Below are positions 3,238-8,053 of a stretch of 8,053 nt of DNA, piece by piece. A model generated the notes under the pieces. The model was not told the origin of the DNA, made no database searches, and saw nothing but the letters and a program-made list of their open reading frames with translations. Within the stretch, counting starts at the first letter, position 1. Each line of letters starts with the position of its first letter. Position numbers and translations under genes: made by a program. This DNA comes from a virus (Duplodnaviria > Heunggongvirae > Uroviricota > Caudoviricetes): the IMG/VR virus record IMGVR_UViG_2563366906_000012, one strand, 5' to 3'.

Positions 3238-3509
3238 GTATTCGTATTGAAATTGGCGAACGTTATGTCGTTACCAGTGACAGCTTTCAGTTTATTCTCC
3301 ACGAGAAAAAGAGAGCGGAAAGCGGTAAAAACGCCGGTCAGGAATGGCTGTCGGTGGTTGGTTATTACCCGAAATTAAGCCAGCTCGTTTCCGGCCTGAT
3401 GCATCACGATATTCTGACCGGAAGCGCAAAGTCTTTTGCTGATTTAAACGCGCAGGTTGAGCAACTCAGCAAGCGTTGTTCAGAGGCTTTTGGCTCATAT
3501 GGCCGTTAA
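3234..3509 (+). CDS. Hypothetical early protein (position of P2 orf83)
   Basis: 91-aa ORF, translationally coupled upstream, whose 3-prime end overlaps the gene A start by about 11 nt. No recognisable domain. Confidence 0.6.
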   Translation: MSIRIEIGERYVVTSDSFQFILHEKKRAESGKNAGQEWLSVVGYYPKLSQLVSGLMHHDILTGSAKSFADLNAQVEQLSKRCSEAFGSYGR

Positions 3510-5778
3510 AGCCTCCGGGCGTTTTGTCCCTCCGTCAGCATTTGCCGCAGGCACCGGTAAGGCGTTTACCGGTGCTTATGCATGGAACGCGCCACGCGAG
3601 GCCGTCGGGCGCGAAAGACCCCTTACACGTGACGAGATGCGTCAGGTGCAAGGTGTTTTATCCACGATTAACCGCCTGCCTTACTTTTTGCGCTCGCTGT
3701 TTACTTCACGCTATGACTACATCCGGCGCAATAAAAGCCCGGTGCACGGGTTTTATTTCCTCACATCCACTTTTCAGCGTCGTTTATGGCCGCGCATTGA
3801 GCGCGTTAATCAGCGCCATGAAATGAACACCAACGCGTCGTTGCTGTTTCTGGCAGAGCGTGACCACTATGCGCGCCTGCCGGGGATGAATGACAAGGAG
3901 CTGAAAAAATTTGCCGCCCGTATCTCATCGCAGCTTTTCATGATGTATGAGGAACTCAGCGATGCCTGGGTGGATGCGCATGGCGAGAAAGAATCGCTGT
4001 TTACGGATGAGGCGCAGGCTCACCTGTATGGTCATGTTGCTGGCGCTGCACGAGCTTTCAATATTTCCCCTCTCTACTGGAAAAAATACCGTAAAGGGCA
4101 GATGACCACGAGGCAGGCATATTCTGCCATTACCCGCCTGTTTAACGATGAGTGGTGGACTCATCAGCTTAAAGGCCAGCGTATGCGCTGGCATGAGGCG
4201 TTACTGATTGCTGTCGGGGAGGTCAATAAAGACCGTTCTCCTTATGCCAGTAAACATGCCATTCGTGATGTGCGTGCGCGCCGCCAGGCAAATCTGGAAT
4301 TTCTTAAATCGTGTGACCTTGAAAACAGGGAAACTGGCGAGCGCATCGACCTTATCAGTAAGGTGATGGGCAGTATTTCTAATCCAGAAATTCGCCGGAT
4401 GGAGCTGATGAACACCATTGCCGGTATTGAGCGTTACGCCGCCGCAGAGGGTGATGTGGGGATGTTTATCACGCTGACCGCGCCGTCAAAGTATCACCCG
4501 ACACGTCAGGTCGGAAAAGGCGAAAGTAAAACCGTTCAGCTTAATCACGGCTGGAACGATGAGGCATTTAATCCAAAGGATGCGCAGCGTTATCTCTGCC
4601 GTATCTGGAGCCTGATGCGCACGGCATTCAAGGATAATGATTTACAGGTCTACGGTTTGCGTGTCGTCGAGCCACACCACGACGGAACGCCGCACTGGCA
4701 TATGATGCTTTTTTGTAATCCACGCCAGCGCAACCAGATTATCGAAATCATGCGTCGCTATGCGCTCAAAGAGGATGGCGACGAAAGAGGAGCCGCGCGA
4801 AACCGTTTTCAGGCAAAACACCTTAACCGGGGCGGTGCTGCGGGATATATCGCGAAATACATTTCAAAAAACATCGACGGCTATGCACTGGATGGTCAGC
4901 TCGATAACGATACCGGCAGACCGCTGAAAGACACAGCGGCGGCTGTTACCGCATGGGCGTCAACGTGGCGCATCCCGCAATTTAAAACGGTTGGCCTGCC
5001 GACAATGGGGGCTTACCGTGAACTACGCAAATTGCCTCGCGGCGTCAGTATTGCTGATGAGTTTGACGAACGCGTCGAGGCTGCTCGCGCTGCTGCAGAC
5101 AGTGGTGATTTTGCGTTGTATATCAGCGCGCAGGGTGGGGCAAATGTCCCGCGCGATTGTCAGACTGTCAGGGTTGCCCGTAGCCCGTCGGATGACGTTA
5201 ACGAGTACGAGGAAGAAGTCGAGAGAGTGGTCGGCATTTACGCGCCGCATCTCGGCGCGCGTCATATTCATATCACCAGAACGACGGACTGGCGCATTGT
5301 GCCGAAAGTGCCGGTCGTTGAGCCTTTGACTTTAAAAAGCGGCATCGCCGCGCCTCGGAGTCCTGTCAATAACTGTGGAAAGCTCACCGGTGGTGATACT
5401 TCGTTACCGGCTCCCACACCTTCTGAGCACGCCGCAGCAGTGCTTAATCTGGTTGATGACGGTGTTATTGAATGGAATGACCCGGAGGTCGTGAGGGCGC
5501 TCAGGGGCGCATTAAAACAAGGTCTGAGAAGACCAAACCGTCAGCAAAGAAACGGAAGCCCGTTAAAACAGCATGAAATGGCACCATCGGCCAGACTGAC
5601 CCGGTCAGAACGAATGCAAATTACCCGTATCCGCGTTGACCTTGCTCAGAACGGTATCAGGCCGCAGCGATGGGAGCTTGAGGCGCTGGCGCGTGGAGCA
5701 ATTGTAAATTACGACGGGAAAAAATTCACGTATCCGGTCGCTGATGAGTGGCGGGGATTCTCAGCAGTAATGGAGTGA
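3499..5778 (+). CDS. A: Rolling-circle replication initiation endonuclease, P2 gene A / HUH Rep superfamily
   Basis: The tracked ORF is 3457..5778. The likely start is ATG 3499 (MAVKASGRF), or TTG 3490, giving about 759-762 aa against 761 aa for P2 A. It carries an HUH metal-binding motif (HWH, codons 4693-4701, in EPHHDGTPHWHMMLF) and a twin-tyrosine motif YIAKY (Tyr codons 4846-4848 and 4858-4860, in AGYIAKYISKN), like the phiX174 gpA active site. Confidence 0.9.
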   Translation: MAVKASGRFVPPSAFAAGTGKAFTGAYAWNAPREAVGRERPLTRDEMRQVQGVLSTINRLPYFLRSLFTSRYDYIRRNKSPVHGFYFLTSTFQRRLWPRIERVNQRHEMNTNASLLFLAERDHYARLPGMNDKELKKFAARISSQLFMMYEELSDAWVDAHGEKESLFTDEAQAHLYGHVAGAARAFNISPLYWKKYRKGQMTTRQAYSAITRLFNDEWWTHQLKGQRMRWHEALLIAVGEVNKDRSPYASKHAIRDVRARRQANLEFLKSCDLENRETGERIDLISKVMGSISNPEIRRMELMNTIAGIERYAAAEGDVGMFITLTAPSKYHPTRQVGKGESKTVQLNHGWNDEAFNPKDAQRYLCRIWSLMRTAFKDNDLQVYGLRVVEPHHDGTPHWHMMLFCNPRQRNQIIEIMRRYALKEDGDERGAARNRFQAKHLNRGGAAGYIAKYISKNIDGYALDGQLDNDTGRPLKDTAAAVTAWASTWRIPQFKTVGLPTMGAYRELRKLPRGVSIADEFDERVEAARAAADSGDFALYISAQGGANVPRDCQTVRVARSPSDDVNEYEEEVERVVGIYAPHLGARHIHITRTTDWRIVPKVPVVEPLTLKSGIAAPRSPVNNCGKLTGGDTSLPAPTPSEHAAAVLNLVDDGVIEWNDPEVVRALRGALKQGLRRPNRQQRNGSPLKQHEMAPSARLTRSERMQITRIRVDLAQNGIRPQRWELEALARGAIVNYDGKKFTYPVADEWRGFSAVME
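5350..5375 (+). other. Candidate replication origin / A-protein nick site inside gene A
   Basis: In P2 the origin lies inside the A coding sequence. The stretch GCGCCTCGGAGTCCTGTCAATAACTG at about 5350-5375 resembles my recollection of the P2 ori nick region. This is a recollection-based placement, not verified. Confidence 0.3.
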
Positions 5779-6043
5779 ACGTCGCCAGTTGCGAAAATTA
5801 TTTACAGGGGGCAGCGTTAAGCATCTAAAGATCTTGTTCTATGATTAGAATGTTTCCTCGTTGCACTCTCGTATAGTTATTTAATGGGAAGATGTACTCT
5901 ATATGTTGTGTTTTGGTGATAAATGAAGCCAAAGGAAGGAGATTTTGCTTGATTGATGGGCGCTCTTTGCTATACACCTTGTATTGAGAAGGAGAAGTAA
6001 TCAAGGATTAAGCTGGCTTTTGTCAAAAATCTGAAAAGCTTTT

Positions 6044-6073
6044 TTGACTGAATACGATAGCGAGTTGTACTAT
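6044..6073 (+). promoter_or_regulatory. Candidate sigma70 promoter for the cargo cassette (-35 TTGACT 6044-6049, 18-nt spacer, -10 TACTAT 6068-6073)
   Basis: By-eye hexamer match about 35 nt upstream of the first cargo ATG (6108). It sits in an AT-rich spacer and is immediately preceded by nested palindromes (GTCAAAAA ... TTTTTGAC around 6022-6049; AAAAGCTTTT at about 6033-6042). Confidence 0.4.
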
Positions 6074-6107: not shown

Positions 6108-6488
6108 ATGGGGAAGCAAGGCAAAGGCAAAGGCAAAGGCAACAAAAATCAGGTTAAGGTTACGTGGGCTCAGGCGTGGCGGGATGTAATGATAAGAGCC
6201 ATGTCTAATGGTCAGTTGATACCTATTACCATCAGTATTATTTTAATGATTGCTGCATGGAGGTTACCAAAAACTGACTTGTCCAATTTAGCCTTCTCTA
6301 TTGTTGATGGCTTTAAGGAGCATTCCTTGGTTGGTTGGGCTATCTCGGTAATAGTGGGTTTGGCTTGGTCTGCACATGCGCGAATCATGAGGCGCTGTTT
6401 TAGTTCCGAGGCACAGAGAATCGGTAACGAGAAAACAAAGTATCAACAAAGACAGACCACTCAAGCCTTGGGTACAAGTGATAAATAG
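6108..6488 (+). CDS. Hypothetical small membrane protein with Gly-Lys repeat N-terminus (cargo gene 1)
   Basis: 126-aa ORF. The N-terminus MGKQGKGKGKGNKNQ is encoded by the in-frame hexanucleotide repeat GGCAAA. There are two hydrophobic helices (about residues 36-52, LIPITISIILMIAAW, and 73-90, LVGWAISVIVGLAWSA) and a basic/polar C-terminal tail. AT-rich relative to the phage backbone. No recognisable family. Confidence 0.6.
   Translation: MGKQGKGKGKGNKNQVKVTWAQAWRDVMIRAMSNGQLIPITISIILMIAAWRLPKTDLSNLAFSIVDGFKEHSLVGWAISVIVGLAWSAHARIMRRCFSSEAQRIGNEKTKYQQRQTTQALGTSDK
6114..6143 (+). repeat. In-frame hexanucleotide tandem repeat (GGCAAA x3 perfect, with flanking degenerate copies) encoding (GK)n
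   Basis: Direct reading: aag caa ggc aaa ggc aaa ggc aaa ggc aac. The perfect copies span 6120-6137. Confidence 0.8.
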
Positions 6489-6508
6489 TTGTTTATTTAG
6501 GAGTTATT

Positions 6509-7066
6509 ATGCTGACAGTGCTGTTTTATGTGCTGTTGGGTTTAGGCGCAGCACACTTCATTTACGAGCGAATCATTTTGCCGTCCATCCGACTTCATTA
6601 TAGAAACCAATTGTTTGCGCTTCGTGATGTCGCTAGGAGGAAAATCATTGATGGAGGTTCCGATACTTCCATGCAAGCGGCAACACTTGTGCATGACTCA
6701 TTGAATAACGCTATCAATAGATTGCATTTACTCACGTTGCCAAACAAATTTCGTGCTCAAAAGCGTATGGCAGAAAACCATGCAATAAGGCAGAAAATTC
6801 GGCGTGAGATAGATGTTTTCAAACGCTGTGATGATAGAGAAGTTGTTGATGTACTGTTTAAATCCGGTCGGATACTTGAAAATGTACTGTTATTCAATAG
6901 CTTAATGTTATTGCTTTACATGTTTCCATTTGTCCTTGCTGTATGGTTCTGTGTTAGGGTCATAAAGACAGCAAGTAGTTTAGTACAGTGGGTCAAAGGA
7001 AGAGATTTAGAGGAAGCTATAATGCTGCTTCCTGATACTCAGGTTGAAAAGGTTGTATACGCATAA
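6509..7066 (+). CDS. Hypothetical membrane protein, N- and C-terminal hydrophobic helices flanking a charged central domain (cargo gene 2)
   Basis: 185-aa ORF with a strong SD (AGGAG 6499-6503, 5-nt spacer). Hydrophobic segments at about residues 2-24 (LTVLFYVLLGLGAAHFIY) and 126-152 (VLLFNSLMLLLYMFPFVLAVWFCVRVI), with a roughly 100-residue Arg/Lys/Asp-rich region between. It starts 20 nt after cargo gene 1, so the two are probably an operon. No recognisable family. Confidence 0.65.
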   Translation: MLTVLFYVLLGLGAAHFIYERIILPSIRLHYRNQLFALRDVARRKIIDGGSDTSMQAATLVHDSLNNAINRLHLLTLPNKFRAQKRMAENHAIRQKIRREIDVFKRCDDREVVDVLFKSGRILENVLLFNSLMLLLYMFPFVLAVWFCVRVIKTASSLVQWVKGRDLEEAIMLLPDTQVEKVVYA

Positions 7067-7134
7067 AAATCACCCCTTAGGGGGTAATGCCGATCAGTTA
7101 AGGATCAGTTGACCGATCCAGTGGCTGTGTAAGA

Positions 7135-7168
7135 ATCCGGAAACGCTCACTCGTTTCCGGATTTTTTT
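7135..7168 (+). terminator. Strong intrinsic-terminator-like hairpin inside the IS left end, immediately before the transposase ATG
   Basis: Perfect 11-bp stem ATCCGGAAACG (7135-7145) / CGTTTCCGGAT (7152-7162), 6-nt loop, followed by TTTTTT (7163-7168) and then ATG at 7169. Confidence 0.6.
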
Positions 7169-8053
7169 ATGCACATTGGACAGGCCCTTGATTTGGTATC
7201 CCGTTACGATTCTCTGCGTAACCCACTGACTTCTCTGGGGGATTACCTCGACCCCGAACTCATCTCTCGTTGCCTTGCCGAATCAGGTACTGTAACGCTA
7301 CACAAGCGCCGTCTTCCCCTCGAAATGATGGTCTGGTGTATTGTTGGCATGGCGCTTGAGCGTAAAGAACCTCTTCACCAGATTGTGAATCGCCTGGACA
7401 TCATGCTGCCGGGCAATCGCCCCTTCGTTGCCCCCAGTGCCGTTATTCAGGCCCGCCAGCGCCTGGGAAGTGAGGCTGTCCGCCGCGTGTTCACGAAAAC
7501 AGCGCAGCTCTGGCATAACGCCACGCCGCATCCGCAATGGTGCGGCCTGACCCTGCTGGCCATCGATGGTGTGTTCTGGCGCACACCGGATACACCAGAG
7601 AACGATGCAGCCTTCCCCCGCCAGACACATGCCGGGAACCCGGCGCTCTACCCGCAGGTCAAAATGGTCTGCCAGATGGAACTGACCAGCCATCTGCTGA
7701 CGGCTGCAGCCTTCGGCACGATGAAGAACAGCGAAAATGAGCTTGCTGAGCAACTTATAGAACAAACCGGCGATAACACTCTGACGTTAATGGACAAAGG
7801 TTATTACTCACTGGGACTGTTAAATGCCTGGAGCCTGGCGGGAGAACACCGCCACTGGATGATCCCTCTCAGAAAGGGAGCGCAATATGAAGAGATCAGA
7901 AAACTGGGTAAAGGCGATCATCTGGTGAAGCTGAAAACCAGCCCGCAGGCACGAAAAAAGTGGCCGGGACTGGGAAATGAGGTGACAGCCCGCCTGCTGA
8001 CCGTGACGCGCAAAGGAAAAGTCTGCCATCTGCTGACGTCGATGACGGACGCC
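7169..8053 (+). CDS. insG: IS4 transposase (DDE family), N-terminal 295 codons; truncated by the window end
   Basis: Hand translation from ATG 7169 gives an uninterrupted reading frame to the window end ([86 protein letters not shown] ... [15 protein letters not shown] ... [16 protein letters not shown] ...), which I recognise as IS4 InsG. It is absent from the supplied ORF track because there is no stop within the window. Confidence 0.9.

Follow-up and report, generated by a model that had tools for sequence, protein, structure and literature searches.

The 1TM protein of a known anti-phage locus in a P2-like prophage forms a conserved gene pair with its 2TM partner

Introduction

When two small membrane proteins are encoded beside a TIR protein in the cargo slot of a P2-like prophage, do the three make up a single anti-phage system, or are the membrane proteins a unit of their own? 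The question is raised by ORF2, the second of two small genes in a stretch of 8,053 nt of prophage DNA (hereafter the window, to whose numbering all coordinates refer unless another locus is named). The proteins of both genes belong to a locus, 2TM+1TM+TIR, known from phage AC1. An AC1 lysogen of Escherichia coli C is resistant to lambda and LF82_P8, while the cloned three-gene locus shields E. coli C from lambda, LF82_P8, and P2 (PMC9122126). In the authors' hypothesis, the membrane proteins are switched on by a nucleotide messenger, of which the TIR protein is the source (PMC9122126). Since the AC1 construct was tested only as three genes together (PMC9122126), the defence phenotype cannot be assigned to the membrane pair. 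A published survey of a set of bacterial genomes failed to detect the system under its three-gene definition, and we found no literature on its mechanism later than 2022.

Results

Two small genes in the cargo hotspot of a P2-like prophage

Gene calls and Pfam matches identify the window as the early region of a P2-like prophage. A P2-type tyrosine integrase gene occupies positions 1-1011 on the minus strand, and a P2-type gpA replication endonuclease gene positions 3499-5778 on the plus strand (Pfam Phage_GPA, E = 1e-123), the latter being annotated in identical loci as a 759-aa replication endonuclease. Between the two lie C-type repressor, Cox-like, and B-like genes, together with a gene encoding a TraR/DksA zinc finger. 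The gpA gene is the upstream border of the gpA-portal stretch, which is a cargo hotspot of P2-like phages (Rousset et al. 2022, PMC9122126). Downstream of gpA, the G+C content drops (41% vs. 49%), and this is where ORF1 (6108-6488, plus strand) and ORF2 (6509-7066, plus strand) are found. With gpA ending at 5778 and the integrase, repressor, Cox, and B genes upstream, both ORFs are placed in the gpA-gpQ hotspot; its portal side, which lies beyond the window, is present in loci identical to the window's. The original prediction, made from the DNA letters, that ORF2 is a cargo gene is therefore correct.

ORF2 is the 1TM component of the AC1 locus

As for the identity of the two genes, ORF2 matches the PADLOC model PDLC02977 (“1TM-TIR”) over residues 1-184 with an E-value of 2.7e-75, and ORF1 matches PDLC02978 (“2TM-TIR”) with an E-value of 6.9e-58. 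The two proteins are 100% identical to P2AC1_00003 (ORF2) and P2AC1_00004 (ORF1), and the DNA between 5779 and 7090 is 99.9% identical to that of Escherichia phage P2_AC1. We conclude with high confidence that ORF2 encodes the 1TM protein of the AC1 locus already described as 2TM+1TM+TIR (Rst_2TM_1TM_TIR in DefenseFinder), and is an obligate partner of ORF1. As a catalogued component of a validated anti-phage locus, ORF2 is thus already known, and the window does not reveal a new type of system. The original prediction had overlooked this previous description, the TIR protein encoded by the third gene, and an IS4 element that lies between the pair and the TIR position.

ORF2 has two hydrophobic helices around a charged domain

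ORF2 encodes a 185-aa protein in an ATG-to-TAA frame, with its stop codon at 7064-7066. In Kyte-Doolittle plots (19-residue windows, threshold 1.6), values of at least 1.6 are reached only at residues 1-19 (1.88) and across residues 122-159, with a maximum of 2.29 at residues 131-149. Hydropathy defines an N-terminal hydrophobic helix (residues 2-24, nt 6512-6580) and a second hydrophobic helix (residues 126-152, nt 6884-6964), while charge composition defines the helical domain between them (residues 25-125, nt 6581-6883); a tail follows (residues 153-185, nt 6965-7063). The 101 residues of the charged domain are 32% charged (6 Lys, 14 Arg, 8 Asp, and 4 Glu), with a net charge of +8. The same layout is seen in 30 diverse homologues, in which peak hydropathy averages 2.12 for the N-terminal segment and 2.36 for the C-terminal one, and the middle is net-positive.

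An AlphaFold2 model of ORF2, computed from a 32-sequence alignment, contains only helices (mean pLDDT 85.3, pTM 0.67): a long helix at residues 2-48, four helices across 52-130, and a second long helix at 132-162. The first long helix runs from the N-terminal hydrophobic segment directly into the charged region, and the last holds the second hydrophobic segment. Hydropathy, charge, the 30 homologues, and the all-helical model thus all agree with the original prediction of two hydrophobic helices around a charged domain of about 100 residues, and both peptides that it quoted are found in ORF2.

Judging from hydropathy and charge, both hydrophobic helices probably span the membrane; the protein was annotated with one TM helix by Rousset et al. 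(PMC9122126). The charges that follow the first helix favour an N-out orientation, which would leave the bundle in the cytoplasm. The orientation of the second helix is ambiguous since Lys/Arg residues flank it on both sides.

Across 32 1TM homologues, the residues H16, Y19, E20, P25, R28, L29, R32, L35, F36, D40, R43, N66, N67, N70, L72, N130, Y137, and P140 are invariant. One polar cluster sits at the end of the first helix and on one face of its continuation (H16, Y19, E20, P25, R28, R32, F36, D40, and R43), with R39/D40 counted within the conserved Arg-rich helix, and a second cluster lies in the second hydrophobic helix (N130, Y137, and P140).

ORF2 has zero matches in Pfam and NCBIfam, 30 members of its family gave nothing credible against Pfam, and Foldseek returned no significant match for the model. 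In PHROGs, both ORF1 and ORF2 fall in families of unknown function, and protein 2 has no match in the HHpred table of the source paper (PMC9122126). The remote-homology searches with the central domain, by sequence and by structure, matched no characterised family, whether defensive or not. Nor does the bundle match known nucleotide-sensing domains.

ORF1 and ORF2 are tightly coupled

The partner protein, encoded by ORF1 (126 aa, TAG stop ending at 6488), has a Lys/Gly-rich N-terminus, hydrophobic helices at about residues 37-52 and 73-89, and an Arg-rich C-terminal tail. Its single-sequence AlphaFold2 model (pLDDT 59.9) is good for rough helix positions only. Conserved residues W87, H90, and R95 cluster at the end of the second helix. 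ORF1 has two chance-level Pfam matches, far below the curated cut-offs, and none in NCBIfam. A GGCAAA hexanucleotide repeat at codons 5-12 (6120-6143) encodes a Gly-Lys run; among otherwise near-identical E. coli loci, it varies by one in-frame unit in either direction, giving ORF1 proteins of 124, 126, or 128 aa.

A candidate sigma-70 promoter (6044-6073, plus strand) lies 35 nt before the ORF1 ATG, with TTGACT and TACTAT separated by an 18-nt spacer. It is a pattern match, obtained in a consensus scan of the identical intact locus (L001, 2546-2575), and falls within the fragment that Rousset et al. cloned with its native promoter, the start of which corresponds to position 5843. The gap between ORF1 and ORF2 is 20 nt, and sequence inspection reveals a Shine-Dalgarno motif, AGGAG (6499-6503, plus strand), 5 nt before the ORF2 ATG, as had been noticed at the outset. 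Across 16 lineages, the gap between the two genes ranges from -4 to +28 nt, with an AAGGAG-type Shine-Dalgarno motif in most. This tight translational coupling, together with the constant pairing and co-divergence described below, bears out the prediction that ORF2 is co-expressed with ORF1.

The 2TM+1TM pair is a conserved unit

A profile search with the 1TM protein through 1.84 billion cluster representatives found 1,035 relatives at E <= 1e-3, of which 783 at E <= 1e-10, each standing for a cluster at 50% identity. All 1,035 are 170-195 aa long. A word-indexed search retrieved only 49 clusters, mostly from Enterobacterales, and a scan of GTDB representative genomes a single locus. The few relatives with source names include those from two MAGs, one of Bacteroidota and another labelled Candidatus Paceibacterota, so the family extends past Enterobacterales.

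The partner accompanies the 1TM protein wherever we looked. The 1TM and 2TM profiles match the same 51 loci, all of them retrieved by way of the 1TM protein, and in each the 2TM gene directly precedes the 1TM gene in the same orientation. One more locus, L064 from an E. coli prophage, has the pair arranged likewise, for a total of 52. In a metagenome sample, the partner is immediately upstream in 45 of the 47 evaluable loci. Moreover, the two proteins diverge together: over 105 comparisons, their pairwise identities correlate with r = 0.95, the mean identity being 0.40 for each. The 2TM+1TM pair is a conserved unit.

Two irregular loci were also seen. In L052/L053 (4643-5004), the 2TM gene is split into calls of 72 and 47 aa next to an intact 1TM gene, which may represent decay of the pair. 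In a 1.4-kb metagenome contig (L074, 393-1205), the 2TM frame is open into that of 1TM (...KDLKSSQGQ|MTIAMITLL...). Since this 2TM gene starts in a different frame at its 5' end, decay or an error in sequencing would explain the contig as well as fusion does, and we have not used it as evidence; a genuine fusion would place the 1TM N-terminus and the 2TM C-terminal tail on the same side, in conflict with the N-out orientation proposed above.

IS4 has inserted in the terminator of the pair

Directly after the 1TM gene, intact loci have a hairpin, AAAAATCACCCCTTAGGGGGTGATTTTTTT, which has the features of an intrinsic terminator for the pair and a folding energy of -17.8 kcal/mol (z-score -5.1) by direct folding. 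This hairpin escaped a scan for consensus terminators, probably since its stem is extended by pairing between the A and T runs on either side. In the window, only the left half of this hairpin is present (7067-7084, plus strand). It is interrupted by an IS4 element (7085-8053, plus strand; left end TAATGCCGATCAG; transposase ATG at 7169) that starts 18 nt after the ORF2 stop codon, between the 1TM gene and the position of the TIR gene in intact loci, and runs past the end of the window. The element is 99% identical to annotated IS4 copies, and the empty site corresponds to L001 3569-3598. The TIR gene begins 240 nt after the 1TM stop codon in intact loci, a position filled by IS4, which occupies the sequence to the end of the window. 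It is owing to this insertion that the window lacks a TIR gene, which we expect to lie beyond 8053 in this locus, as it does downstream of the pair in its intact relatives.

The IS4 junction of the window was found in none of 5,426 complete E. coli genomes, nor in IMG/VR or the metagenome collection. IS4 prefers terminator-like hairpins as targets, and other insertions agree with this: two other copies, L014 (zapB-rraA) and L015 (fumC-fumB), also sit in terminators composed of an A-run, a hairpin, and a T-run, and are flanked by target duplications of 12-13 bp. The pair itself appears intact in the window, IS4 having simply landed in its terminator. The insertion represents a natural “uncoupling” allele, suited to asking if the pair depends on TIR in cis.

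The TIR gene is linked to the pair only in the AC1 clade

Of the 5,426 complete E. coli genomes, 14 have an intact AC1-type locus, as do phage AC1 and many contigs; in such loci, the 1TM gene is followed by the hairpin, the 240-nt spacer, a gene for a 315-aa TIR_2 protein, ORFs of 94 and 305 aa, and the portal gene. Within this clade, linkage is strict: pair and TIR gene are co-linear without exception in the AC1-type loci that we saw, which come from 14 complete genomes, 10 contigs, and 2 viral contigs, and all 14 complete E. coli genomes with either one have both. A consensus scan found no promoter-like site in the 240-nt spacer, so the TIR gene could depend on read-through from the pair. 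As for the two further ORFs between TIR and portal (L001 5509-6426; L002 8936-9220 and 9223-10140), the 305-aa one has no Pfam match, the 94-aa one has a single chance-level match below the cut-off, and neither is in PADLOC; they lay outside the construct tested in 2022 (PMC9122126).

Beyond the clade, the two part company. Searched with tblastn, the AC1-type TIR is confined to loci with a 100% identical 1TM protein, and it is absent from 16 other pair lineages in prophages and chromosomes. A profile of the AC1 TIR family matched none of 49 metagenome loci, of which 18 contigs have at least 1.2 kb downstream and many are short. Conversely, the TIR family, which comprises at least 1,509 clusters, has members that live alone. 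A 74%-identical Klebsiella homologue is the sole gene called in the gpA-portal hotspot of P2-like prophages (L054-L056), and others, with 60%, 47%, and about 54% identity, are lone genes that lie in Serratia, at the edge of a prophage, and next to an OLD-family nuclease gene (Burkholderia); no pair is found near any of these four. The solitary genes point to a family of single-gene TIR defence proteins with at least 1,500 clusters.

The AC1 TIR protein has an N-terminal TIR_2 domain, whose putative catalytic Glu we take to be E76, and no long hydrophobic stretch on sequence inspection; the PADLOC model for the TIR protein of this locus is PDLC03016 (“TIR-TM”). Solitary homologues (L054-L056; L057-L059 from Serratia; L063 from Burkholderia) combine TIR_2 with a C-terminal domain of about 170 residues.

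Since the pair is conserved, the TIR gene occurs only in the AC1 clade, and TIR homologues occur alone, the pair is most likely an autonomous membrane module. The strong terminator (-17.8 kcal/mol in its intact form) and the 240-nt spacer, which set the 1TM gene apart from TIR, argue for autonomy as well. Against it stand the strict linkage in the AC1 clade, the lack of a promoter-like site in the spacer, and the location of distant pairs outside defence islands. On balance, we hold with moderate confidence that the pair is functionally autonomous, and that TIR is a neighbouring defence gene that is terminated separately and moves independently.

The main alternative, an unlikely though serious one, is the hypothesis of Rousset et al. 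and follows the logic of a signal generator and its effector: on infection, the TIR protein would make an NAD-derived nucleotide signal that activates the 2TM and 1TM proteins, with death or arrest of the cell as the outcome. In the window, IS4 would then uncouple the effector pair from its signal generator. This would account for the defence seen with the three-gene construct, and it sits well with the co-linearity in the AC1 clade and a spacer devoid of promoter-like sites. However, an effector tied to this signal is hard to reconcile with a pair conserved across about 1,000 clusters and in all the TIR-less contexts sampled, with close TIR homologues alone in the same hotspot, with a strong terminator between pair and TIR, or with a 1TM bundle that matches no known nucleotide-sensing domain.

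The pair occupies different accessory slots

Where, then, is the pair found when TIR is absent? In diverged P2-like prophages (46-86% identity), the portal gene lies 350-500 nt after the 1TM gene, which leaves no gene between pair and portal, and in several of these prophages the pair is the entire hotspot cargo. In Klebsiella lambdoid prophages, the pair is between the antiterminator Q and holin genes, while in E. coli O91 and related prophages it is between the lysis genes and the HNH/terminase genes. In distant bacteria, it forms an islet among unrelated chromosomal genes, outside recognisable defence islands, and a Pfam analysis of 121 ORFs flanking metagenome loci revealed no recurrent neighbour. 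Two P2-like hotspots have other cargo upstream of the pair (L028, 3969-5088; L029, 4130-5262), namely a 226-aa unknown protein with a WapI-like immunity-family protein in one, and a DUF3850/ASCH protein with two small ORFs in the other.

Such contexts bear on a second alternative, in which the pair is a prophage “moron” or a chromosomal membrane module that does not act against phages, and AC1 defence comes from TIR alone. The pair would then serve lysis timing, holin regulation, envelope stress, or host fitness. The proximity of the lambdoid pair to the lysis cassette fits this idea, as does the presence of distant pairs among housekeeping genes rather than in defence islands. That TIR could suffice is suggested by its homologues, which are single-gene cargo in the same hotspot and elsewhere, and by the single-gene TIR systems that Rousset et al. 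also reported (PMC9122126). Yet the P2-like slot is enriched for defence genes and often has the pair as its sole cargo, the pair is an accessory cassette that moves from one unrelated prophage slot to another, no match to a holin or any other family was obtained, and annotated holins are separately present beside it. We consider this alternative improbable.

A holin role for the pair was considered and rejected. Neither protein has a Pfam holin match, and the lambdoid prophages have a separate annotated holin (Phage_holin_3_1, 3_3, or 8) before or after the pair. The sole hint of a holin is in the HHpred table of the source paper, where protein 1 aligns with Phage_holin_2_4 at 82% probability and an E-value of 20 (PMC9122126).

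Least probable of all is a toxin-antidote membrane pair, in which one protein would damage the membrane and the other neutralise it, so as to stabilise the mobile element, whether or not phages are affected as well: two small, tightly coupled genes that move as an islet, transposase, integrase, or resolvase genes that are sometimes nearby, and a degraded partner gene in L052/L053 would fit, but the two proteins are equally conserved, co-diverge, and show no similarity to known toxin or antitoxin families.

Discussion

The reading that we prefer, and regard as an evenly balanced proposition, is that the pair is a functional unit at the membrane for which TIR is not obligatory, with ORF2 as its 1TM subunit. 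The 2TM and 1TM proteins would form one inner-membrane complex, N-out and with the charged bundle in the cytoplasm, that acts alone at the membrane upon phage infection. As the two are small membrane proteins in prophage accessory slots, their action might be a collapse of membrane integrity (abortive infection) or a block of genome entry (superinfection exclusion). As originally suggested, ORF2 may act as a sensor or effector, or as a gate for protein 1. The TIR gene of the E. coli AC1 clade would then be a neighbouring, separately terminated, and separately mobile defence gene, and not an obligatory signal generator for the pair. Slightly more tentatively, we propose that the pair is a self-sufficient and phylogenetically broad anti-phage module without TIR, and that the catalogued system consists of two adjacent systems that happened to be cloned together.

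What the present analysis adds to a known locus is the IS4 uncoupling allele and the evidence for two units within one catalogue entry. The comparative data could alter the reading of this entry, which probably merges two independent units. Its three-gene requirement means that tools detect the system almost nowhere, while the membrane pair is widespread and unannotated, and its 1TM family has no Pfam model. If the pair works alone, it would be a compact two-protein membrane defence or exclusion module, whose conserved polar residues invite mutagenesis, and the TIR protein would become a separate single-gene system.

How does the pair compare with known systems? The closest is the system to which it has been assigned. 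The window shares with Rst_2TM_1TM_TIR the same proteins (100% identity), the position after gpA, the promoter region, and the spacing, and differs from it in having IS4 in the terminator and no TIR gene within its limits. The comparative data indicate that the named three-gene system is made of two separately distributed units.

At the level of logic, the AC1 locus, in which a TIR enzyme is encoded beside small membrane proteins, resembles type II Thoeris, where coupling of a TIR protein to a membrane effector is established (TIR ThsB and 2TM-Macro ThsA), as well as CBASS and Pycsar, which use transmembrane effectors. However, ORF1 and ORF2 have no recognisable Macro, SLOG, SAVED, or cNMP-binding domain, and in most lineages the membrane pair is not genomically tied to a signal generator.

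The structural model of ORF2 shows a generic helical-bundle resemblance to 4HB-type chemoreceptor and TorS sensor domains, with 8% identity and no Pfam 4HB match. Chemoreceptor bundles lie in the periplasm and lead into a signalling domain, for which ORF2 has no equivalent.

Finally, lambda RexAB, P22 SieA/SieB, and T4 Imm/Sp are prophage-encoded membrane proteins of exclusion or abortive infection. Proteins of this type are small, reside in the inner membrane, are encoded in the accessory slots of temperate phages, and are expressed by the lysogen against incoming phages. The 2TM+1TM pair has no sequence or fold similarity to them, and the likeness is one of functional analogy.
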